Shown one piece after another: positions 3,585-64,000 of a stretch of DNA of 64,000 bases. The stretch lies in NCBI GenBank assembly GCA_964016885.1, contig OZ024751.1:34100001-34164000 (forward strand), read 5' to 3'. How positions within the stretch are numbered: the first letter of the stretch is position 1; each line of letters starts with the position of its first letter. The position numbers and the translations under genes are program-made. The notes below the pieces were generated by a model, which made no database searches, was not told the DNA's origin, and saw only the letters and a program-made list of their open reading frames with translations. The stretch is from Eledone cirrhosa (Eukaryota).

Positions 3585-3622
<38 letters not shown>

Positions 3623-3627
<5 letters not shown>

Positions 3628-3819
3628 AAAAAGTTCAAGATCCCGACGGCAGAGCTCATGCCGTTTCGACGGCTATTTCTGGACCAGAAATAGCCGTCGA
3701 AACGGCTTGAGCTCTGCCGTCGGGGTCTTGAACTTTTTCCTATCACCCACTCTACTACCCTAAGTATTGAGTACTCTGGTGCGTTATGGTCCATCTGGTT
3801 CCTTACCACACTTCCTTCG

Positions 3820-3821
<2 letters not shown>
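3623..3821 (+). mobile_element. Fold-back palindromic element, family B copy 1 (Penelope-like end) in (TA)n
   Basis: 60-bp inverted arms 3623-3682 / 3684-3743 with a 1-nt centre, ~78-bp unpaired tail, TA runs on both sides. Homologous to 34993-35189 and 63908-63968. Confidence 0.8.
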
Positions 3822-4385
<564 letters not shown>

Positions 4386-8690: not shown

Positions 8691-9800
8691 TATCTTCATA
8701 TCAATATATTACAGAACCTTACGGATTACCTAATGGGCCATCAGAAAAGGCCGTGTCAAGAATTGAGTCATAGTATTATGTCGTAAACATTTCACCACCT
8801 ACCTTGTTCCGGCAGATTGTTTGTTTGCGGCTTATTTGAGTTCCAGTGAGGAGAGGAAAGTGTTACGTAGCCTTGACAACGGCCACACAGTCAGAAACAG
8901 TTGTCGGTTGCTTCTCTCCCCGCCTTGCCTCTGCTGGAACCACCACCACCGCGTGTCTATACGTGTGTATATAAGTATAAAATGGGTTTCTACATACATT
9001 ATCATTACTTTCTTATTATTGGTTTATATGTTGACTGGGTTAGCTGCGGTACATGACTTGTATTTAGTTATTTAGGGGATTCTTAGCCAGGGGATGAAAG
9101 GCAAAGTCTATCTCCTCCAATCCAGATTTGAACTCATGTCCTCGGTAGGGAATGGAATTATACTAGTGTAGCCTATAGAAGCTATTTAAACGAATATATG
9201 CACTGCTGTTGTAGTTATATTAATCCACAATTTCCTAGTCTGCTTATATGTGTGTGTGTGATAATGCATGTGCGTGCCTGTCTGGGTATGTGTGTCTGCA
9301 TGAGAGAGAGAGAGAGAGAACAAAAAATAATATCGAAAAGTTCACATGAAAAGTTTGCTTTAAAATGGAGAATATTTTGCGAGAGGCGCCGGTTAGAATA
9401 TGTATTCGTCCTATTTAGTCAACCATTTTACAACAACTAAACAAAACACATTGTCCTTCCAATAATAATAATAAATTAATAAATATATAAAGAAATATAT
9501 AATAAATGATAAAAACAAACGTATTAAATATCAAATTTCGAATATGAGTTGTTAAAGAAAACATTGTAAACGAAAAAGATATAAAGTTTAATAATAAAAC
9601 AACAATAATAAAAATAATATCCAACAAAAACAACACAATTCTTGTTGTTACATTTTTTTTTGCATTTTTATAGACTTTTATTATTTATGAGATAGTCGTG
9701 ATATTTTTCTGTAAACCGGGATGTAATAAAATCGGAGACTGACCGCCAGGAGTCAAACCATTAGTTTTAGAAAATTTAATAACTCCAAGCTGATTCAATT

Positions 9801-13597: not shown

Positions 13598-14049
13598 TAT
13601 CTGTCTGTCTGTGTGTCTGTGTGTCTGTGTGTCTCTCTGTGTATGTCTGTAAGTAAACGTAAGTATTCATTCTATATGCAAACATTGTCCAATACGTTGA
13701 CTATAACTATTCAAACAAGATGGGATTTGTTTGTTGAAATGGCAGGCGATAATTTTAAGCGACGCAGAAGAAAAACAAGAAAACTGTAAAAATGTCAGAC
13801 AAATAAAGGAACTGGAAACAAAAAGAAATTTCAAATGTTTTTACATTGAAAAAATATATAAGGAAATATATACATAAATGTTGCCATATCTACATATTTA
13901 ACACATATTATACACATACATTAACATTTATATATATATATATATATATATAGTGGTGGAACACTAGAAGGTAATATCCGTAGTGGTAGAGCACTCAGTT
14001 CATGGGACGAGTTAGGTAGAAGTGGTTACACAACAGTTAATTCACCATA

Positions 14050-14089
14050 CCGAGAACAATTGTTTCACCTTAGCGGATCCTCAGCTCGG
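14050..14089 (-). ncRNA. Minimal type-I hammerhead ribozyme motif (mirror copy)
   Basis: Exact reverse complement of 14700-14739. Confidence 0.7.
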
Positions 14090-14699
14090 AATGGGCATGG
14101 TTATAGGAACAGGAAGGACAACCGTACGAACGCGCATGCGCAGAAACCCGGTCACTTCACACAGGCAATACTAGAATGCGTGTGAGAGGTGTAAGGGAGA
14201 TAACTGCGAAAGTCCGAAAAGTTTTTAGTTGAAAAATAAAATTACAAAGAATCAGTCCGGAGCCTTGTAGTTATGCAATAGGTGTTTGGCGACGTGTGGA
14301 CAACGTGTGAAAAATCATTTCTCGTGTTTAGGCAATCACTATAGCGTAATCTCTTTAGAATAGTTATTCGTTCGTCAATACATTAACCACACGCCGGATG
14401 GGTTATGTATTGACGAACGAATAACTATTCTAAAGAGATTACGCAATAGTGATTGCCTAAACACGAGAAATGAATTTTTCACACGTTGTCCACACGTCGC
14501 CAAACACCTATTGCATAACTACAAGGCTCCGGACTGATTCTTTGTAATTTTATTTTTCAACTAAAAACTTTTCGAACTTTCGCAGTTATCTCCCTTACAC
14601 CTCTCGCTCGCATTCTAGTATTGCCTGTGTGAAGTGACCGGGTTTCTGCGCATGCGCGTTCGTACGGTTGCGCTTCCTGTTCCTATAACCATGTCCATT

Positions 14700-14739
14700 C
14701 CGAGCTGAGGATCCGCTAAGGTGAAACAATTGTTCTCGG
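14700..14739 (+). ncRNA. Minimal type-I hammerhead ribozyme motif
   Basis: CCGAG-CTGAGGA-tCCgctaaGGt-GAAAC-aatt-GT-T-CTCGG: perfect 5-bp stem I, canonical core, weak stem II, palindromic loop III, GUU triplet. Confidence 0.7.
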
Positions 14740-14766
14740 TATGCTGAACTAACTGTTGTGTAACCA

Positions 14767-14843
<77 letters not shown>

Positions 14844-16490: not shown

Positions 16491-16953
16491 TTGAGATCGG
16501 TGTGGAAGTCGGACCTTCGTAAAGACCTGAAAATCCGCCTCTTCATTGCTGTACGGGTCTGAGACTTGGACACTGACCAAGAAACTCACTCAGATGGTGG
16601 ATGGGTGCTACACGAGAATGCTGAGGATGGGTCTGAACATTAATCAGTATACACTGAGGATGAAAAACTCAGAGCTGTTTGGGAACCTCCCAAAAGTCAG
16701 CTCAAAAGTGACACAGAGGAGACTGAGGTTAGCTGGACATGCTCACAGACATCCAGAGTTGACATTGCACTCAGTGTTCCTGTGGGAGCCCCTACATGGA
16801 CATACTGGAAGAGGAAGACCAAGGTTAACGTATGTTGATGCCCTAAGGACAGACACTGGTCTGTTGGAGACGCAGGATATGGCAGCGATAATGAGGGACA
16901 GAAACCGCTGGAGAGAACTCGTCCATGGATCTCGGGAATTTTACCCGCCCTAG
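16491..16953 (+). mobile_element. 5'-truncated RTE-clade LINE (C-terminal part of RT ORF) inserted in (TA)n
   Basis: LRSVWKSDLRKDLKIRLF upstream, then LLYGSETWTLTK...GCYTRMLR...RRLRLAGH...LWEP...GRGRPRLTYVD...RDRNRWR, typical of the RTE C-terminus. TA runs on both sides. Confidence 0.88.
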
Positions 16954-17452: not shown

Positions 17453-17530
17453 ATCTCTACCATGGTTTCTTCCTTGTTTAGGACATCCAAATAATATGGA
17501 TTTGCTTTGAGTCAGGAATCATCAGGAGAC
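17453..17530 (-). ncRNA. Type-I hammerhead ribozyme motif with extended stem II
   Basis: Minus strand reads GTCTC-CTGATGA-TTCCT-(42 nt including an ATCCA/TGGAT hairpin)-AGGAA-GAAAC-catg-GT-A-GAGAT. Core intact, GUA triplet. Confidence 0.78.
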
Positions 17531-26532: not shown

Positions 26533-26798
26533 TTCTTTTTATTTGCCACCAAGGCGTCAAAGAGTGGGACAAGTACAACGGGGGGAGTTTACATAAAATG
26601 GCGTCCTCAATAAGGAGGAGGCAATAACAAAATATAAAAATATAAAAATATTAAATATAAGAAAAATAAATTGAATAACAAAATCCTCAATAGGGAGGAG
26701 GCGCCTTGGGGGGTCGCACACACCCCCGAAAAAGTGTGAAACCCTTCTCCGCAGGAGCACAGAGAGAGGGTGCTCCCTTGATGTTTTATCTTTCTCAC

Positions 26799-29700
26799 CT
26801 ACAGTCTGATGTAGAGTGAAGGCCCATTCACACGAGCCATTCTCGCCACTTTCACCCATCTTTCATAAAAACAGCTGGGGTGCAGCACCTCTCTCTCCAT
26901 CCTGATCCTTCTTCCGAAATGATATCGGAAGAAACGGACCAGTTGTTGGCCAGAGAAAAAGGTGTCTGACCTCAGTCCTTTCAGACACGTCCACCATTCA
27001 ATCTCTTTCACCATGGCTATTACGCACAGAAACACCGCCTCTCCTTCGTTTTTGAAGAGGGGAGGCGGCTTGGTCGTTACAATAGACTCGGTGGTCAACC
27101 GGATCGGTCCCACCCGTGACAGCAGTCCTTCAACATAGCCCCACAGATCGGCAATGCCCGAGCAGTGTACCAATGCGTGTGCAACGGTTTCCTCGTCGCA
27201 CACGCATCTGGGACAGATCTTTTTCGAGGGGTCCCTACCCGGGTGACCGTGTCTGTAGAGCCTTTCTCGAACGGGCAGAGCCCCTCGGTAGTACTGCCAG
27301 GCCAGGGACCTCTGGAAGTTATCCATAGGTCCCGGGCTGAATGTCCTACCGAACAGGTTGGCCAGTTCGTTTTCCTCCATGTCTAGGGCTTCTCCGAGGG
27401 CGTCGTCACACCTGCTAACCACCAGCCCTCTATAGAATGACGAGGTGGATTCTCCACTGACAGCAGGGTCCGCCTGCCAGATAGACGTGAGCGCCTGGGC
27501 ACACTCGGTGTGCCAGGCGCCCAGTTTTCTCGGTCTTTGCTTGACCCAGGATTGCAGCTCGGTGAGCGAGACGAGTCTGGGAAAGGCTCGCCTCACAAAC
27601 GGGGCCTACATCGGTTGACCAGTGAGGAATACCTGGAGGTGCCGTAGCCTTAATGCGTGTTTGCGCATCATCAGCCACGGCATCCCCAGCCCTCCTTTCG
27701 AAGGGTGTTGACAGCAGATGGATCTCCTCATCATAGGAGCCCGTTTCTTCCAAAGGAATTGGAAGAGTGCGCGCTCCATTTTGGCGAGCGTTTCCCTTGG
27801 GCAAGGCACGACGGTCAGGCGGTAGTAGATGACGGACGCTATATAAGTGTTCGCCACCTCCGCCCGACCTTTCAGGGACAGTTTGCACTCGGCTCACTTC
27901 TGGGTCAGTGCAAACACCCTGTTCGCTACCTCACCCCAGTTCTTCTCCACCTGGAGGTCTGGTCCAAACCAGACCCCGAGCAACTTCACCGGGCCCTCCG
28001 TCCAGCGCCCGACGACGCCATCGGAGGGCATCGATCTGCCCCTCCACGTGCCGAGTTGCAGACCGATCGACTTGTCCCGGTTCAGCTTAGCCCCTGTAAA
28101 CCTTTCGTACTCCTCCAGTAAGGTGCCGATCGCCCCGATTTCCGAGGCCGTCGACACCATTACTGTTACGTCATCGGCGTAGGCCGACACCGCTTTCTGC
28201 AATCCCGGTTCCAACGGGATGCCCTGTAACAACTCCAACTTCCGCAGCAGTGGCTCTAGAGTCATTACATACAGAAGGGAGGAGAGATAGAGCACCCTTG
28301 TCGGATGGACCGCGTGATTTAGAACGGCTCCGAGAGGTAGCCGTTCACCTTGACCCTAGAGCAGATGAGGCTGCTGTGCATGGCAGTGATCCAGCCCCTG
28401 AAAACGGGCCCGAAGCCTGCCGCCGCTAGCACCGCATCCAGGTCACCATGGTCGACCCTATCGAACGCCTTAGATTGAGCCAAGTTGATCAGGGCCCCAC
28501 CAAAGCCGGGTTCGTTCCCAACCCTCTCTAGGATGTATCGCATGAGGTGGAGGTTGTCGTGGATGGACCTGGACGGGATAGCACATGTCTGCGCATCTCC
28601 CACCAGGTTGCCCACGACAAGCGCCATCATCTTTGCTAGCACCTTGGCCAAAATCTGTAACTCTGTATTTAGCAGAGTTATGGGCCTGAATTATTTATAT
28701 CGTCCCCCTTGTTCTCGTCCTTCCTCACTAGCGTGACTACACCCTTGGTCACAGCACAGGGAATTCTCCCGTTCTGTTGCTAGTTGCAGTAGACCACCTC
28801 GAGGAGATCGGGGAACAAGTCCGGCATAGCTAGATATAGTTCGTATGGAAGACCATCGAGACCCGGGGATTTGCGTTTGCAGCATTGGCTCAGCACGTCC
28901 CCTATCTCAGCGGCTGAAATCGGCTCCTCGCAGGACTTCGCCTCCCTGTCCGAGAGACGCGGCAGGCCGTCGAGGTATGAACCGAAGTCCACTTCCCCAA
29001 CCGGTTCCCCGCCCCTTCCGAACAATCTGGCAAAGTGCTTTTGAAAAGCCTCGCACATCTGCTTAGGTTCAAGGATCACCCGTCCATCCTGGTCTCGCAA
29101 TGACCGGATAGTGGATCTGCTCCCTCTTTTGGCTTCTGTCACGCGGGCCCAGCTAACAGCTTTGGTCTCCTCGTTTCCCAGAGCACGTATTTTGCTTCGG
29201 ACGATGCAGCCTTCGTATTTCGCATCGAAGAACTGGCTCAGGGTCGTTCTCGACGCTAGCACTCTGGCCACGTCGCCGCTTCTAATTGCCTCTTCTACAC
29301 TATCTACCAACTCCCTTTCCTTCCTATTTCTATTTGAGGCTAACTCCTTACTAAATTCTATAGAGACTACTCTAATCTCTCTCTTGAGAGATCCCCACCA
29401 CCTGCTGTTGACGATGGCGCTCGTCAACCACTCCTTAACTAAAGTGCTAATCTGGTCCCTGTAAGCCTTACTTGCCGGTAAGGACAAGTTGAGCTTCCAG
29501 TAACCGGGTCCCTGTCTATGCTTTCTGTGAAGGTTGACTATGCAGGTCCCTAACTTGTGGTCTGAATAGCCAACCATGAGCATTTTTGGACAACTTAAAA
29601 AGTCCTTATCCTTATTTCTAACTAAGAACCTATCTAGGTACGACCTAGATGATCCGCTGCGGTTTGCCCAAGTCCAGGTTGGCGCATTCGGAAAATCTAG

Positions 29701-30237
29701 TCGATATCTATCGGCCAGGTCAAATCGACCGATTAACCCCTTGAGGATGTTACAACCCTCTCTATCGAGACAGGCCCTTGCGTAGTCCTAACGTGCATCT
29801 AGGATACCATTCCAGTCCCCCACTAATAGCAAGGAGCGGGACGTCCCTAGAAAAGTCTCCAGACGATGGGAGAAGTCCGGCCGCGTTGACCCGAAAGGGC
29901 CGTAGACGGCTACCAGCCTAAACGCTCCGCCTTCACCACTGCCAAGGTCCAGAACCACTAGTCCACCCTCCGGGTCCAAATGTACCGTCTGTGTTGCGAG
30001 ACCCAGATGTTTTTGCAGCAGAACGACACCCCCACCCCCACCTCCGGGCTGACAGAGAGATGCGTGCATCTCAAAGACATCAAAGGTGGGGGCCAGCTGT
30101 CGCACGTTGCTGATCCGGGCCTCGCAAATAACCATCACATCTATACGTTGTGACCTGAGGTCATTTAGAAGCATTGCTTGCTTCCAAGTTGAGCCCAGGC
30201 CACGCGCATTTAGACAGCCTACTCTTAGTATAGCCAT
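26799..30237 (-). pseudogene. Tx1/L1 ORF2 (AP endonuclease + reverse transcriptase + zinc finger), broken by several stops and frameshifts
   Basis: APE motifs LNARGL, ICEA, VAVYGP, VGDWN, SDH; GPGYWKLN; KSPGLDGLPYELY; QSKAFDRVDH; SAYADD; VKLLGVWF; KGGLGMP; C-terminal CPRC...ETVAHALVHC. Confidence 0.93.
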
Positions 30238-30438
30238 TTTGGTGGTGAAGAGAAAAGGCACTTACCTCTCTGCGTCCCGGGTATCGGGCTGCACAATTTC
30301 CATGAGGGTGGAGATGGGTTGTTGGGTGGGGTGGTGGTTTGTGGAAGTGTAGGGGCATCAGTGTGTTGTGTGGTTGGGGTGTTTGGAGTTGTGTGGGTGT
30401 TTGGGGAGGGGGTGGGGAAATGTTTTAGGAGGACGCGG

Positions 30439-31939
30439 TTAATGGGCCCGACGCAGGGGGGGGGGGGGCACGTCCTCTTTAAAGTTGTTTTTTAGTGTTT
30501 TATATGTGTCCTCTGGGGCCTTAATCATTTTGAGGTGGGGGAAATCCCCTGCCTGGGTGAAGTTAGGCCCTTGGGTTTTTACTAAATTGTTGTTGTATAC
30601 AATGTTTAGCAGTTTTTTATTTCTTTTTTTTATGTATGTGTATGCATGTTTTTGTTTTTGTGTGGTGTTTTTTGTTTGCTGTTGTGTGCTCTTTTGTGTT
30701 GGTGTCTGTGTTATGTTTTGGGGAGGGGTTGTTTTCATTTGTGTGTCTGAGGTGTGTTTTCTTTTTTTTCTTTTGATTGTGTGGAAGTGCTCCTCCTCGT
30801 CTGACGACGAACGAGGGTCATCTTCCGCGTTGGAGGGGAGGGGTAGATTTTCGGGTTGTGTTTGCGGTGCGGGTGTTTTGGAAATTGTTTTTTTTTTAGT
30901 GGGAGGGATGGGTTGGACAGTGTTTTGTTTTGGTTTGAGCTGTGGTTGTTGTTTTTGTAGTGGTGGTTGTGGTGATTGTGTTGGTTGTGCAGGCAGGATT
31001 GGGGTTTTCTTTTTAAGTTGAGGACAGACAGCCCTCAGGTGACCTCTGGCTCCACAGAGGTAGCACGAGGGCCGCCTACCCTCAACGGTAATGTTGATAA
31101 CAGTTTGATCATCCAGTATGACGCGTTCAGGAATATGGGCGATCCTTTCGGGCCTCATTTGAACTACAAGTTCGAGGCCCGTTCCACTGAACGCGTCACC
31201 CGATGCCTTTCCCATGGATATTAGTGTGTCATCGTCTAGGAATCCTGTCAATACGCACCATATGTCCATAATCGGAAGGATGGTGTGAATTTTTATTTTT
31301 TGTGTCCTTCTACCCATGTACGTAGGGTAGAAGGTGGATGTGATTGGTTTTATTGACAATTTCGCTGCCGTGTCCCTGTCCTTCATGAGAATGGATAGAC
31401 TCCCGTAGAGTCTATCCTTCTGAATGAATATGATGTCTTTCATGACATCTTTTAAAACCAGCTCTATCTCACTCTGTGATGGTTGAGCTGGTTTTTTTGC
31501 TTTTGTTTGAGACTGTCCTAAACATGACAATGTTTAGGAGTCTCTGGCTTTTTAGTTCGGGGGGGGGGAGGATCGACAATGATCCATTTTCCCTGTACAC
31601 TATGTATTTTTTGGCTTTGCTTATATCTACTGGCAGATAGTCGAGGGTTTTCCTTGCAGTCTGGGTGAAGGAGACCTTTTCCTTGTTCGTGTTGCTGTTG
31701 TAGTTGGTGGTGTTGTTGTTGTTATCATTGTTGTTGGTGTTGTTGTTTTTGTTGTCTTTATTGTTGCTGTTGTTGTCGTTATTGTTGTTGTTTTCGGTTT
31801 CTTGTGTAGTTGCGGCTACATCAAGTTGTCGGTCAGCAGGTCGGTCATCTGCTGCTGTGACAGTGGAAGGGGGGGGGGGGAGCTGTGAGTTTAGCTTCCC
31901 TTTTCTTTCTTTGAATGTTGGTGAAGATGCTTCAGCCAT
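30439..31939 (-). pseudogene. Tx1-type ORF1 (gag-like nucleic-acid-binding protein), one frameshift near 31500
   Basis: ORFs 31469-31948 and 30439-31530 overlap in different frames. Zinc knuckle VEGRRPSCYLCGARGHLRAVC (CX2CX4HX4C), Asn-rich N-terminus, Pro/Gln/Lys-rich C-terminus. Confidence 0.85.
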
Positions 31940-32155
31940 TTTTATCAAAGTAGGAAATTTTTCGAAAGATAAAATTTATTTTTTTTCACCACAATTTCGC
32001 CTAAAGGCGTAGAATAATTTGAGAGACTGACCAGATCAAAATTTGACCTGGCAGTCCCTCTACAAAATGGTACAAAAATGAAAGTTTACAGTTTGGAATT
32101 TCTATGGAAATTTAGGCAGAACTTACTCACCAAGTTTTACGCGTGTGTCCATCCC

Positions 32156-34475: not shown

Positions 34476-34537
34476 AAACTAACAGTCGGCGTGACATATG
34501 GATCATTCCACTCCTTGTTATATATATATATATATAT

Positions 34538-34955
34538 AATAATGAAATGACAGGAGGCTGGATTTGTGTAAATCCTTGAAAGGTTTATTATACTATGATC
34601 ATTTCAATGACCGGGTTCCGTATGAATCCGGTGATATCATTCGAAATATAATACGTGAATGTAATAGATAAAATCCATGGGCTGAAAATCGAGGACCCGA
34701 GGGCGACCGCTATTCTGTTCCTTCAACCTCATACGGAACCCGGTCATTGAAATGATCATAGTATAATAAACCTTTCAAGGATTTACACAAATCCAGCCTC
34801 CTGTCATTTCATTATAATATCTAACTCCGTAATAGCACCACCAACTACAAAAACAAAGACGGTTGAACTGCCTTACGTTGAGTACTCTCTATATTATTGC
34901 ATTACGATTGACCATACGGAATAGACCAGCTCTATACAGTGGTGAACCTCAAACC

Positions 34956-34959
<4 letters not shown>
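34538..34959 (+). mobile_element. Inverted-repeat element (88-bp identical arms, 103-bp spacer, ~143-bp tail) in (TA)n
   Basis: 34538-34625 is the exact reverse complement of 34729-34816. The arm contains the hammerhead-like 3' half GAAAT-gatc-AT-A followed by AATAAA. Confidence 0.75.
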
Positions 34960-34992
<33 letters not shown>

Positions 34993-34994
<2 letters not shown>

Positions 34995-35189
34995 CGGAGG
35001 AAATGTGGTAAGGAGCCAGGTGGACCATAACGCACCAAAGTACTCAATACTTAGGGTAGTAGAGTGGGTAATAGGAACGAGTAGGACCCCGACAGCTGAG
35101 CTCAAGCCGTTTCGACGGCTAATTCTAGACTAGAATTAGCCGTCGAAACGGCTTGAGCTCAGCCGTCGGGGTCCTACTCGTTCCTATTA
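34993..35189 (-). mobile_element. Fold-back palindromic element, family B copy 2, in (TA)n
   Basis: Arms 35069-35128 / 35130-35189, tail 34993-35068. Reverse-orientation homologue of 3623-3821. Confidence 0.8.
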
Positions 35190-36519
35190 TATATATATAT
35201 ATATAACAAGGAGTGAAATGATCCATATATCACGCTGACTATTAGTTTTATCTTGCCTTTCTTCAGAGTGAATATTTTGCTATATTTATAATTTATATGA
35301 AATTATGATCGAACTAGATGAGAACCACATATTCATGCCTACTCCCTTATTTCAAAGTAAATTTATAAAACAACTTGGGTATCTTCCCAATATTTTGAGT
35401 TGAACAGTATATCTAGAACAACTCCTATGTTTTACCTTATTATTCATCTATCTCACTTTCTTTCCATCCTTTATACCACACGTCTTTCCTTATGCCAAAT
35501 TGAAAGTAAGTTTCCTATATATGTATGTTAGTGACATTTTAATTTGTACATTTTTTGTGTACTTGGTATATACTGGCTTCTCTTAAGAGAGGGATTAAAA
35601 CAGTTGGTAAAGGTTGAGACACTAAAATGCAACTCAGTATATTTCTCTGTAATTATGTTTGGCACTACACTATTAAAAGTTGACACTTCCCTGTGGGTAA
35701 ACGATTAAATCAGCGGGGTGGACAATACAGTTTGAGTATATAATATTCTTCACTTTGCTAAAATATTCTCAAAGAAATCGATATCTAACTCCTCTTCCAC
35801 GATCCCTTCCTCTTCATTCACAACTTTATTCTATTTCATCAAATGTTGATACCTCACTACCACTTTATGTCCATCATTTTCAGTTGTTCATGAAATTATT
35901 TCGAGTTTATAGTGTATCTCTGGTGGTGATGAACATATATACAGAAATAAATTTTCTCAGAAAGGTTTCTCCTTATACCAAATACATATACTGAGCTTTG
36001 TCCATAATTATTCAATCTAGCTGTGGAATCAGGTTTATGAAGGTATTTTCAATAAATTTATATGGGGATTAAGACGACTGCTTTCGTTTTACTTATGACT
36101 CATGAGGATTTCTTTGACTCTCCTTTCCTAAATACTGAGATAAATGTAAACAATATTGGGTTAAATACAAACCTATTTGTATAATGGAACAAATTTGATG
36201 ACCTATGTTTAGTTTCTAAAGTAACAATACCACGTGCCTCAGAAATATATATACAAACTCTATATTTTCCTTTTATATTTTTATATATTAAATCTCAGGT
36301 GAAGAGACGTTATATCCTTCGCCCAATATTCTTGAACACCAAAGAAAATATCGTCTCTCCACCCGATACTGGCAGCTATGTTCAATGACTGATTGATATC
36401 GAGTACCGCAGTGGTTCACAAAATGTACCACGGTCCTAATAATAGATTTCCTTTGACAAAATGCTTGTTAGCAATTTTCACATCAAAGACCGACATGTCG
36501 TAGGCCTATAGTTGGTAAC

Positions 36520-49212: not shown

Positions 49213-49265
<53 letters not shown>

Positions 49266-49399
49266 TGACGTCAGACTGACCACCGTACATGCAAACAAGC
49301 ATGCATGTACACATACATGCTTACATTTATACATACATACATGATGGCTGCATCTCGATTTCAAGAATTTCTATAAGTTGATCCTTTTTTCACAGCTGG

Positions 49400-50210: not shown

Positions 50211-51989
50211 ATGTTTAGTAAGAGAATATCGAGTCAAATTGATTTTGTGTATTAGTATTTGTATCTTTCGATATGAAAAGCTTTATTGGTTACAGATAAG
50301 AAGCTGTTCAAAGAAACGCTACATGCCTTTGTGGCTGTGGTGTTTAACCCTGGGTCAGCTCTGAGTTAGCACAACTGTAAAATCAAAAGCATTCCAACTA
50401 TTATCATCGATTGTTTTCTTTTCTTTTTTGAGAAGAGGTGGAGCGTGAAGCACTACAATAACCAATATGTCTACCGTTTATAACGGTGGTCGGCTGGGTT
50501 GGTGTGATTTTAAAGACATTTGCCTGTTATCTCTTGCAAGTCGAGTGATTACATAATAACGCTTGAAATATGCGTGGGGGGGGGGGACTGTAAGTGTATG
50601 TATATGTCTGTGTATGTGTCTGTGTATGTGTGTATATGTTTGTGTATATGTCTGTGTATGTGTGTATGTATGTGTGCTTGTGTCTGTGTATGTGTGTATA
50701 TGTCTGTGTATATGTCTGTATGTGTGTATGTATGTGTCTGTCTGTGTGTATATGTCTGTATGTGTGTATGTCTGTGTATATGTCTGTATATGTGTATGGG
50801 TGTATGTGTCTGTATGTGTCTGTATTTGTATGTGTGTATGTGTATGTGTCTGTGTGGCAATAGTGTTTATGTGTGGTAATGTGTATATAGCTAAGTTGTA
50901 AATCATGGAATCTCGCGTACGATCTCATTGCCTATAAAATTCTAAAGAGTTTGTCTCCCTTTACAAAACAACACACACACACAACACAACTTACTCTCAA
51001 TACTCAACACACTAACACATACATCAAACACACATACATCTGGCATGCTTACATTCATACACCAAATATAGAAACACGGTAACACCTCACACACTAATAC
51101 AGAAGTTCACACACACACATACAGAGAATACCCGACACACGCACACAACACAAACACACTTACACAGAACACCTGACACACATACACACAAAAATACAGA
51201 TACACATATACACACACATACACACAACTTAGAAACACACACAGAACAGCCGACACACATACATATACACGTATGCACACATCCACACAACAGAAAAACA
51301 CACAAACACAATATTTAGACGAATTATATAATCTGTTGTGAAAATATTTAATTTGTAACGTGAGAAAGATATTTTAATCTGTTTGGTGGTCAGTCTGACG
51401 TCACCATATCTTGCAAAAGGTTCTGATGTGATGGGAGAGCACATGTTTGGATTAACTAAAACATGTCTGTTGAAATTAGGACAATGATATTAAAGGAGAC
51501 GTGTCTGTCGTGGAATCAAACACTTTCACTCTGACGTACAATTAAGATGTCAGCTTTTAGTGAGGAAATCAAAATATAGACAATATGGGCGGCGAGGGAG
51601 GAGGAGAAAGAGAGTGTGTGTGCTAGAGGGGGGAAAAGAAGGGAGACATAGAGGGGGGAAAAGAAGGGAGAGATAGACGGGGGGAAAGAATGGAGAGATA
51701 GACGGGGGAAAAGAATGGAGAGATAGAGGGAGAAAGAGGGGGAGAATAGAAGATGAGATGAGTAAGACAGAAAAGGATAGAAGGAGTGAGAAATAGAAAG
51801 ATAAGAAGGGGGAGAAAGAGATGGTTAGAGACAGAAGAAGGGAGGAAGCTATAGAGAGAGAGGGGTGAGAGAAAATCAAGTGAGATTGAGGAATCGAGTT
51901 AAAGAGAGCAAAGGATACAGAGTGAGAGAGTGACAAAACATATTTAAAAGACAAAAGAAAGAAGGAAAAGTAGATAGATAGATAGATAA

Positions 51990-53957: not shown

Positions 53958-54397
53958 AATCGGCTCACTGTGTTGTGGTTTCAGATCCTACTGCAGTCAA
54001 ATTGTCTTACTACAGTTAAGATGTGCTTAGTTGTGTTCGCGGTAACGCCCAAGAAAAACAGTGGATTAAACCAGCTTATCTTCCTGGAGAGCGCAGTAGC
54101 TCGGTGTTCTCTGTGCATAGTAATGTTCTGTCGAGGCCGCTTCTATACGGTTTAGGCAAGTAGTCAGACATACAGACAAACAAACAGACAGACAGGCAAT
54201 CAAGCAAGCAGACAGGTAGACAGATATTTGCAAAATTTAGAAAAATAGGAAGTAATTTCGATAGATATCTTGCTTCCCAGCATGAGCAGACATTACAGAA
54301 CAAATAGCGAGCAAGTAATCTATATAAACCGCTATACAATCATATACATATATATATGTGTGTGGGGGGGGGGGTACACGTGTGTGTGTATTTATGC

Positions 54398-60985: not shown

Positions 60986-61798
60986 TAATATTGGTATGAA
61001 TGAATGAAAATGTATAAGCAATCTCCTCAAACATAAAATCCACGTACATCAACGAGACAAAGACTAATGTTCCTATCTTATCAAAGTACGAGGCTTGAAA
61101 AATTGATTAGTTGAAACCAACTGGTTAATGATCAAACATTGCACGCCTTACATAAATGACACAAAGCAAAGCCCATTATGCACAGCTGAGAAATACTTCC
61201 TTTTAAGAAAGTAAACGTCTACTTTAATCAGGAAGATAGAAATTGTAAATATGAACTCACGTAAACATATTCTACCTGACAAATTACAATATTGAAATAG
61301 AATCTGATTAATCTATAGGTCATTTATAAGTAAACTAGAGAACCTGGAAATTTTTACAGCATGGAGTCTCCCGGTAACTAATACCAAGGATAATTCTGTG
61401 AACAGATGAATCATTGTTAATATGTAATAATTGTCTCTCCAAAATGAAAAAAGGGGAGGAAAATATAGTTTAATTTTACTATAATATAATAATATATTTT
61501 ACTGTATTAGATGTATGAGAAGCTATTTCCAGGTATAGTTGCACGAGACATAAGAAGGCTCCTCAGGACTAGACATATTGAGTAGCACAGCTTGCAACAG
61601 ATAATATATTTAGTGAGAGAAAAATAGTTAGAGATGTGTTTATTTCTGTGTGTATATATATATTCCACATGCCATACATATAGTCACACACAGTAACACA
61701 GACACACACTTATCTCATACACACATCCACATATAGTCGTATATGATTCTACCTAGATATATCGTACGTCATTCATTTTCCTTAATCCCCTTCCCACG

Positions 61799-62335: not shown

Positions 62336-62338
<3 letters not shown>

Positions 62339-62339
62339 G

Positions 62340-62730
62340 TGACGAAACATAAGTCAATTGCATGAACTCATAATCATTTATTTACTGCTATATATATTTC
62401 GATGACAGCCATTGAATGACTATGACCTCATCAGGCAGTTAGTCAGTTCTTAGATATGCCAGCTCTGTGTTTATAGTTTTGATGGTATCAGAGCCTTGGG
62501 ACATATTGATACCATCAACACTATAAACACAGTGCTGGCATATCTAAGAACTGACTAACTGCCTATTGAGGTCATAGCCATTCAATGGCTATCATCGAAA
62601 TATATATAGCAGTAAATAAAGGATTATGAGTTCATGAAATTGACTTATGTTTCGTCAGTATTATAACTCCAGAACTTATATCTTCGTAGAGTGCTCCCTA
62701 TCCGCATACTGAAGTAGTGGATTTTACCAA

Positions 62731-62734
<4 letters not shown>
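62340..62734. mobile_element. Fold-back palindromic element (151-bp arms, 16-nt spacer, ~76-bp tail) with hammerhead, in (TA)n
   Basis: Arms 62340-62490 / 62507-62657; TA-rich arrays on both sides. Confidence 0.82.
62384..62439 (-). ncRNA. Type-I hammerhead ribozyme motif
   Basis: ACTGC-CTGATGA-G..ATAGTCAT/ATGGCTGT..C-GAAAT-atat-AT-A-GCAGT, then AATAAA. The mirror copy near 62558-62613 has a damaged core (CTATTGA). Confidence 0.78.
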
Positions 62735-62771
<37 letters not shown>

Positions 62772-62824
62772 TGGGAAAGTAAGAAATCGGAGAATAGACC
62801 GTTAAAACATGTGTATTTAAAACA

Positions 62825-62864
62825 GCACCTACGTACGTTTCGCCCAGTTGGGCTTCTCAAGGGC
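62825..62864 (-). ncRNA. Minimal hammerhead motif with U3-A8 variant core
   Basis: GCCC-TTGAGAA-GCCCaactGGGC-GAAAC-gtac-GT-A-GGTGC. Strong stem II, palindromic loop III, short or bulged stem I. Confidence 0.62.
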
Positions 62865-63857
62865 ATAAAAAATCAAAAGTGTTCCTTACATTGCTCGGAA
62901 AGAGTTTTTGGGGTTAAATCCACGTCAAGGTTCATTGCTCGCAAAAATAGCTTGTTTTGATTTTGCAGCAGGTCAAGGGAGGTAACTCTGGCCGGTGTTA
63001 GGGCAGTCTTTCCCGGACAAATTTTTTTTATCTTGGCTGCCCCATTTCCGTGCTTTCTACATTTCTTAGTGGTATCTTTGCTTTAATTTCCCGTATATCA
63101 GTAATTTTTTTTAGGGGGGGGGGGGGGGGGTTCTGAATTAATTTTCCCTATCAAATTTTTCATATACTTCGTACGAGCATTTATGTGGTTTGCACTAGAA
63201 TTTTTGTATCGTAGCGGCACCCTTAGAGATAGTATTAGTATTCATTTTCGGGATTCTGAATTATTATTTCGTATTAGTTTATTTTTTTGCACTGGGTGGT
63301 TGCTGGCCTTGTGCCTAGGGTAGAAACAATTATTTCGTATTAGTCTCGGGACTCTGAATTATTATTTTGTGGTAGTTTCTTTAGTATTTTGGCCCCCCAC
63401 TTGTTGATCTGTCACCGTAAGATATACTCGGTTGATTACTACTAACTCTTAAAATGGTCTCATTATAATTCCGTCCCACCTAGTAAACTTTTCTATAGTT
63501 GAGCAGTACCAGTGAGAGACTTGATGACTGTCGTTAGGGAAAAGTAACCAGAAATTGTTTTTTTTTTTAACCTTTTAACATTCTCGGTATTCTTCTATAT
63601 ATTTACCCCATATTGTTTTACTTATTGTTTCGACTTCCTCCCCCTCCCCCTCCCTAGTATACTTGCTTGACCTCCTACCCTGCTGTAGTTGGCACTATCA
63701 ACGCACGACTGGGTTTCCACCACCCCCTCTCCCTCTTTATTCTACTGGCAGGTTCAGCTACCCCTTCCTTCCACAAATTGCCATGATAGAATTATGTGTC
63801 TCAACAACAAACTTTTGACCAATCCTTGTGACAATCACTTTTACCATATATGGAATT

Positions 63858-63953
63858 AACTCCTGAGAAGCTCGGCTATTCATATACCAGGATAAAAATG
63901 TTCATTTAGTCCAGAATTAGCCGTCGAAACGGCTTGAGCTCAGCCGTCGGGGT
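63858..63953 (+). ncRNA. Full-length hammerhead-like motif of family B (extended stems II and III)
   Basis: ACTC-CTGAGAA-GCT-CGGCTA...TAGCCG-TC-GAAAC-GGCTtgagctcAGCC-GT-C-GGGGT. The core has a C3-A8 mismatch. Confidence 0.55.
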
Positions 63954-64000
63954 GCTACTCGTTCCTATATATATATACACATACATATATATATATATAT

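Follow-up and report, generated by a model that had tools for sequence, protein, structure and literature searches.

Folded, (TA)n-flanked repeats of family B as candidate truncated ends of a Penelope-like retroelement

For the Hydra clade of C-terminal EN+ Penelope-like retroelements (PLEs), Craig et al. (2021, PMC8557442) describe hammerheads, insertion into (TA)n, tails of 30-40 bp and inverted copies that are 5'-truncated. Hydra-1_Obim and Penelope-13_HM, in which a copy is inverted and 5'-truncated, belong to the clade; RWK, DKT-type and CxC-type marks are given for it, and the origin of tandem and inverted PLE ends is called an open task in the same paper. In Adineta vaga, Penelope elements have inverted pLTRs with palindromes at their junctions, for which self-priming was proposed (Arkhipova et al. 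2013, PMC3846280). PLE hammerhead variants, at core position 7 and with a U3-A8 core, have also been described (PMC4209133). With Poseidon PAc in vitro, both target strands were cleaved and extended, with two internal reverse transcription starts bounding the tail (Frangieh et al. 2024, PMC11167929).

We compared these systems with family B, a repeat found in two folded copies and one unfolded copy in a 64-kb stretch of DNA (the whole stretch analyzed, hereafter the window), which is microsatellite-rich, animal-type DNA without N and has a repeated SINE-like motif that may be octopus-like. Family B resembles the Hydra clade in its (TA)n target, type I hammerhead near the 3'-end and inverted 5'-truncated copy (PMC8557442). 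By eye, a CTCTAC..GTATTGAG(C/T)ACT-like stretch past the hammerhead recalls Hydra-2_Amil (PMC8557442), and a neighboring element in the window, element A, encodes the C-terminus of the clade. Family B differs from the Hydra clade in lacking an ORF and in a hammerhead whose loop II is 33 nt and stem III 6 bp long; its fold halves the hammerhead, and its 77-nt tail is twice the published 30-40 nt. The head-to-head inverted repeat, the one-armed tail and the junction palindrome are shared with the Adineta vaga elements, which differ from family B in being coding and low-copy, with 8-10-bp target duplications and a 31-bp tail (PMC3846280). Poseidon PAc has an AT-rich target and a hammerhead upstream of the start sites as well, but it belongs to another clade, and two-strand priming is not linked to inverted copies in the relevant sections of PMC11167929.

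L1 twin priming offers a further likeness, since there an inversion results when two primed cDNAs pair over a short stretch of complementarity (PMC2912911). It uses non-overlapping segments of one RNA and a poly(A) end, whereas family B has the same segment twice and no poly(A); a twin-primed L1 inversion was rejected on these grounds for copies 1 and 2. Non-LTR retrozymes are short non-autonomous PLE derivatives with a type I hammerhead, arranged as head-to-tail tandem units that each hold a whole hammerhead (bioRxiv 10.64898/2026.07.22.740005). Family B, in contrast, is dispersed and head-to-head with half hammerheads, and we rejected this assignment because there are no tandem family B units in the window.

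Family B motifs were not found in the searched part of the PMC8557442 supplement or in that of PMC13282606, and the passages of PMC3846280 that bear on the junctions, with its Discussion, make no claim of a shared fold base. The literature covered, with older Penelope papers and Repbase outside its scope, gave no published description of family B and none that traces the inverted ends of PLEs to two cDNAs. Family B also had no match when metagenome, genome and viral contigs were scanned for its exact pattern. Since the layout is known, the finding is mostly a re-identification; what differs is likely the repeated folding at one spot, in two copies. The hammerhead and the Penelope-like identity were absent from the original prediction, and inverted copies, tails and self-priming had already been published under that identity.

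Anatomy of the two folded copies

Copy 1 lies between (TA)n targets at 3588..3622 on the left and 3821..3876 on the right (no strand assigned). Its short, inverted arm (3623..3682, minus strand) ends in TTCCTAT, 22 nt beyond the predicted cleavage site, and adjoins a single central base, an A at 3683 (plus strand), complementary to T63910 of the unfolded copy 3. The 60-bp long arm (3684..3743, plus strand) and a 77-nt tail (3744..3820, plus strand) with a GAGTACTC motif at 3769 complete the copy, whose 60-bp arms fold about 3683 with 2 mismatches between them. Within the long arm, positions 3687-3726 (plus strand) form the 3' half of a predicted type I hammerhead, consisting of the 3' strand of stem II, GAAA, stem III with a palindromic loop, a GUC site at 3721 and the 3' strand of stem I.

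Copy 2 stands in the reverse orientation. From the (TA)n on its tail side (34960-34993) run a 77-nt tail (34994..35070, minus strand; 6 differences from the tail of copy 1), the long arm (35071..35128, minus strand), the central base (35129, minus strand; T in element orientation) and the short, inverted arm (35130..35187, plus strand), followed by (TA)n at 35188-35205. Its arms are 58 bp long with 1 mismatch, or 60 bp counting the TA that merges into the flank. In both copies (TA)n borders the element on either side and the tail is on one arm only, making a total element of about 200 bases, a mirror-image repeat set in (TA)n. Copies 1 and 2 were the sole perfect non-microsatellite odd-centered palindromes detected by a scan of the window. 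Copy 2 also forms part of a nest at 34476-35248, in which an outer 43-bp inverted pair surrounds (TA)n runs containing element E and this copy.

The two palindromes were present as the original prediction had them, with arms about 3683 and 35129 and arm variants mirrored within each copy. Its proposal of a fold about a homologous single central base held for the position (3683, 35129) and not for the base: read with the tail to the right, the junctions are CTGG-A-CCAG in copy 1 and CTAG-T-CTAG in copy 2. In copy 2, one arm reads GCTCAGCT instead of the GCTCAGCC given earlier. We confirmed that the short arms stop at TTCCTAT and then pass into (TA)n; copy 3 ends there too.

The unfolded copy, its predicted hammerhead and the arm variants

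BLAST of the element on the window recovered a third, unfolded copy at 63907-63968, beyond the two described earlier. Its single arm (63911..63968, plus strand) has no tail and ends in TTCCTAT followed by (TA)n, where the short arms of the folded copies end. A descriptor match to a complete type I hammerhead (63858..63953, plus strand) overlaps this arm, with the predicted order stem I (63858-62/63949-53), core CUGAGAA (63863-69), stem II (63870-80/63914-25), loop II (63881-63913, 33 nt), GAAA, a 6-bp stem III with a palindromic loop (63929-47), GUC with cleavage site C63948, and the second strand of stem I. The family B arm corresponds to the 3' half of this predicted hammerhead, and the fold position 63910, which precedes the predicted cleavage site by 38 nt, falls in loop II. 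Hammerhead cleavage as the cause of the fold was ruled out, as the site at 63948 is 38 nt inside the arm.

With a relaxed descriptor, the window gave 6 matches scoring at least 12, against 0.53 per shuffle (30 local dinucleotide shuffles); five of the six lie inside (TA)n-flanked elements, and copy 3 is among the two best. As written, copy 3 has a C3/A8 core and an internal mismatch in stem II. Rfam returned no hammerhead among 21 rows for 62340-63975 or among the best 150 of 399 matches, these 150 being microsatellite or hairpin noise, and RNAfold did not favor the hammerhead fold of copy 3 (z -0.15). AGCCGTC occurs twice in 63918-63947, where the 5' strand of stem III can pair with either occurrence and RNAfold prefers a non-hammerhead hairpin. 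Self-cleavage in family B is predicted from the motif. At the fold position of copy 3 there is a weak micro-palindrome (3 of 5 Watson-Crick pairs and a wobble), better with the base of copy 2; the neighboring position 63913 scores alike, and the dimer reaches only -4.4 kcal/mol. We also noted a candidate 3' splice site- or initiator-like sequence motif at 63902-63910.

Public reads were found in 11 runs, of which 8 covered part of the stretch and none is recorded as RNA; four were compared with 63400-63968. Reads gave depth in 30/30 bins for three runs and 25/30 for the fourth, and the non-coding body upstream of the hammerhead (63400..63857, plus strand, examined from 63400 on, with no 5' limit in that span) is therefore repetitive. 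A63859C and T63861C, each in about 100% of the depth in run X1, make all 5 bp of stem I pair, a U3-A8 core results from C63863T (35% of X1 depth), and core position 7 varies, with another base in one loose-end line of reads. These variants match PLE hammerheads as described in PMC4209133, supporting the hammerhead identity. T63917A, which is the GAAATAG of copy 1, accounts for 35% of X1 depth; its share of 68-69% in two RAD runs is inflated by cutting of the AATT copies at this place.

Over the interval 63894-63913, within which the fold lies, depth rose 35-fold in X1 (63875-93 compared with 63913-31) and 6-fold in X5. The step is not proof of a fixed 5' end, because the frequent loose end at 63918 may belong to a sister subfamily with another loop II. 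This frequent read form ends GTTCGGATC before the 3' strand of stem II (83 contigs; 1357 and 1492 reads) and is probably such a subfamily. Piles of read ends at 63915, 63854-57, 63779 and 63556 were rejected as biology because they coincide with AATT sites and are restriction artefacts; a pile was seen at 63904 as well. No strand-change (fold-back) joint at 63910 was found in any of the four runs, where such joints may be masked if libraries lose hairpins, if the arm is cut at AATT or if contigs break at palindromes.

The four arms of copies 1 and 2 vary at 11 columns: 8 split by locus (7 events, one of them a 2-nt indel), none by side, and 3 are private. A tree of the arms separated the loci at 100/98 (five rows, on which a label shuffle was uninformative, with 158-180 of 500 as low). 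The clustering by locus that had been proposed as a check was thus obtained for the window arms, arguing against left and right lineages of a MITE copied whole. Between loci the arms differ at 8-11/60 columns, a divergence similar in order to the 6/77 of the unpaired tails. A reading frame conserved across arm and tail was ruled out by eye, as the 2-nt indel breaks the frame.

Copy 3 has the copy 2 state at 6 of the 7 diagnostic events. Because this unfolded copy carries the variants of copy 2, and because GAAATAG makes up 35% of X1 depth, the variants are subfamily marks and not the copy-specific changes they had been taken for. The simplest order is therefore a split of the subfamilies first and folding afterwards, with the second arm most likely made anew from a single-arm template two or more times at the same place. 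The earlier suggestion that one arm is regenerated from the other survives to this extent, as an arm most likely made anew at least two times. Regeneration 'at each insertion' goes further than the data show, as one of the three window copies is unfolded, and so does the word 'programmed', which rests on two copies, with no strand-change joint at the fold in the four runs and with relatives that join at many places.

(TA)n-flanked neighbors and Hydra-type loci elsewhere

We used element A (13953..14770, minus strand) as a comparator. It has 371-bp arms, a 67-nt tail with the same motif and (TA)n flanks, and a hammerhead in each arm, at 14705-14734 (plus strand) and 14084-14055 (minus strand). 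Its positions 14400-14534 (plus strand) encode the C-terminal 45 aa of a Hydra-type PLE protein, and its junction lies inside the coding part. Element C (62337-62733) has 153-bp arms, an 18-nt spacer, a CUGAUGA hammerhead, a 73-nt tail and (TA)n flanks, so that both A and C carry hammerheads. Element E, in the nest at 34476-35248, has 87-bp perfect arms, a 103-nt spacer and a 144-nt tail. On a plus-strand scan of the window, GAG(C/T)(A/G)CTC occurred 4 times, always in a tail belonging to A, B, C or E. With a looser pattern there were 7 matches (5 of them in tails) against 4.1 in shuffles, so it is the placing of the motif, rather than the count, that is telling.

The 45-residue peptide of element A matched 2 proteins among 1.84 billion in HMMER; one led to P0006 (46% over 41 residues to the peptide), which in turn led to 298 longer proteins. 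We used 120 Hydra-type proteins, with RWK in 83, DK[T/S] in 109, CNC in 117 and YRDD in 119. Their profile matched element A at positions 662-702/705 (E 1e-7) and fragments at 53984-54142 (minus strand, E 1.6e-4) and 61107-61211 (plus strand, E 1.3e-3), and, like tblastn, it matched nothing at family B. Pfam named no RT or GIY-YIG domain in P0006, P0007, P0008, P0055 or P0096, and the Hydra label therefore rests on motifs compared by eye with the alignment in PMC8557442. Family B with its upstream sequence held no PLE coding remnant by Pfam, the 120-protein profile or tblastn; on 40 candidate frames (38 of 96 and 2 LINE frames), Pfam found only zf-RVT, in the LINE.

Other features were observed in the window. 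The LINE with the zf-RVT match is a near full-length, broken L1/Tx1-like element at about 26550-32150 (minus strand), between (GATA)n and (TAGG)n runs. The 3'-end of a second LINE frame, which we take to be RTE-like, lies at 16531-16953 (plus strand) and runs into (TA)n. About 25 bp are repeated in inverted orientation 2.1 kb apart (49262-49290 and 51385-51410), each adjoining TA, and may be the ends of a DNA transposon. Hammerhead-like motifs were seen at 62766-62870 (minus strand, U3-A8 core by eye) and 8873-8905 (plus strand, odd core), and a strong descriptor match at 17458-17525 (minus strand).

Thirteen Hydra-type loci (L001-L013) were fetched via an alignment of 20 Hydra-type proteins. 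They come from bacterial genome-bin records, 6 of the 13 from one assembly, and are likely host animal DNA carried over into bacterial bins; viral contigs yielded no Hydra-type loci. Hammerhead matches occurred in 9 of the 13 loci, 23 in total. Ten of these run into (TA)n 33-55 nt past the site, 8 have the tail motif GAG(C/T)(A/G)CT 64-77 nt past the site (background 0.013 per 40 nt), and 5 have neither. In the tails of family B this motif lies 46-48 nt past the site, 20-30 nt closer than in the Hydra-type loci; its position after a hammerhead is a mark defined in this analysis, with no published criterion.

Three head-to-head pairs with one short and one tailed arm were recovered, at L003:4030-4315, at L003:4720-5135 and in L008, where the ORF lies within the tailed arm. 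Junctions of the Hydra-type loci vary, with spacers of 7, about 60-70 and 771 nt and mid-ORF positions in L001 and L008; a fixed fold is therefore no general PLE rule. At L003:4720-5135 the short arm extends 69 nt further 5' than the tailed arm; a tail-primed cDNA folding on itself would leave the extra bases on the tailed arm and cannot give this. The two arm alignments there overlap by 11 nt at an inverted microhomology that is already present in the unfolded relative L009. Six junctions could be oriented. Their extra bases were on the tailed arm in 4 (element A, copy 2, L003:4030-4315 and L008) and on the short arm in 2 (L003:4720-5135 and, by a single base, copy 1).

Origin of the folded arms

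The reading that we prefer, with moderate confidence, is that family B is the non-coding, 5'-truncated 3'-end of a Penelope-like retroelement in (TA)n, with both arms reverse-transcribed during insertion on RNA templates of a single subfamily and then linked head to head. It is based directly on the anatomy, on arms that sort by locus, on copy 3 being unfolded and on the same layout in neighboring and distant Hydra-type loci. As in PLE-type insertions, an inverted 5'-truncated copy adjoins the 5'-end in 2 of 3 copies, the 77-nt tail is one-armed in both folded copies, and a type I hammerhead motif lies near the 3'-end of copy 3 by the descriptor, its stem I restored by read variants. All three copies end in (TA)n, in which a target duplication is not discernible. 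The ORF marks of the Hydra clade (RWK, DKT, CxCX5C plus a GIY-YIG-type endonuclease at the C-terminus) were absent from family B, which has no ORF, and were found in part in neighbor A. We accordingly do not class family B as a Hydra element, but only as likely to be mobilized by one, a driver that we infer because family B holds no PLE coding remnant.

Insertion would begin with a Hydra-type RT/endonuclease acting in trans and nicking both strands of a (TA)n run. One 3'-end would prime at the downstream start site, at the end of the tail, and the other at the upstream start site, at TTCCTAT. Both cDNAs would halt in loop II close to 63910, at a short imperfect palindrome of the template, and the two cDNA 3'-ends would anneal across a central mismatch, resolved to A or T, before fill-in completed the palindrome. 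Joining of two cDNAs would explain the shared end of the short arms, its match to the end of copy 3, a tail on one side only, arms that match and a central base of either kind. The arms would match because they have a common template, and the loci would differ because the templates came from different subfamilies. If both cDNAs stop at one place in loop II, this and the small palindrome there would account for the shared junction. Against this account, why a cDNA should stop in loop II has no explanation, and the extra bases on the tailed arm in 4 of 6 oriented junctions are explained equally well by a snap-back.

Such a snap-back, in which the identity is the same and a single tail-primed cDNA folds back by self-priming or template switch and is copied up to TTCCTAT, seems unlikely to us. 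It is the fold-back synthesis of the original prediction and is close to the published self-priming idea, for which junction palindromes were read as evidence in PMC3846280; a hairpin with a 3-nt loop is possible at both centers. It leaves unexplained a copy that stops 77 nt short, exactly where the unfolded copy 3 ends, and the center of copy 1 and the spacer of L003:4720-5135, both in short-arm orientation, would need a later flip.

A rather improbable course is a single folding event in each subfamily, in a master copy, with palindromic masters retroposed whole so that most folded copies inherit the fold point. An identical fold point would then need no fixed stop, and a short amplified unit would give the 35-fold rise in X1 depth, although that step may stem from the sister subfamilies with a loose end at 63918. 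Two folds at one base would still be needed, and a 60-bp hairpin RNA would have to be copied to its exact end.

Homogenization of the arms of one ancestral palindrome, by intra-palindrome conversion or cruciform repair, was also put forward originally, and we now consider it very unlikely. All 8 shared columns sort by locus as it would have them, and a flip or repair could also swap the central A and T. Conversion would not, however, place the variants of copy 2 in the unfolded copy 3, which carries 6 of its 7 events; it leaves 3 private arm differences unrepaired, and the arms have diverged between loci to the same order as the unpaired tails. A MITE or fold-back DNA transposon with a TA target preference, copied whole, would suit a short, non-coding palindrome in a TA context, but is highly improbable: the inverted repeat does not reach the terminus on the tail side, where the tail end has no partner, no column sorts by side, and copy 3, with its upstream body and hammerhead, largely refutes it. 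An assembly or sequencing fold-back artefact would fit the lack of a fold-back joint in four public runs and is the least credible origin, given arms that differ by 1-2 bases, two loci that fold alike with a one-sided tail, the recurrence of the layout in A, C, E and the DNA of other organisms, and raw-read libraries cut at AATT sites inside the arm.

The retroelement identity bears on repeat annotation: in such genomes, a short palindrome flanked by TA is likely the end of a Penelope-type retroelement and not a MITE. The remaining interest is mechanistic, as the repeated fold point, the two alternative 3'-ends and the subfamily marks make one- and two-cDNA models countable from the genome alone. 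Tentatively, the inverted copies and one-sided tails of PLEs may be the product of two target-primed cDNAs that begin at different internal start sites, one at each, and are annealed by their 3'-ends, with family B as a very high-copy minimal substrate that has a common stop in loop II. If this is true, thousands of family B junctions, with a central A:T of about 1:1 and the spacer on either arm, would be a record of the PLE mechanism.
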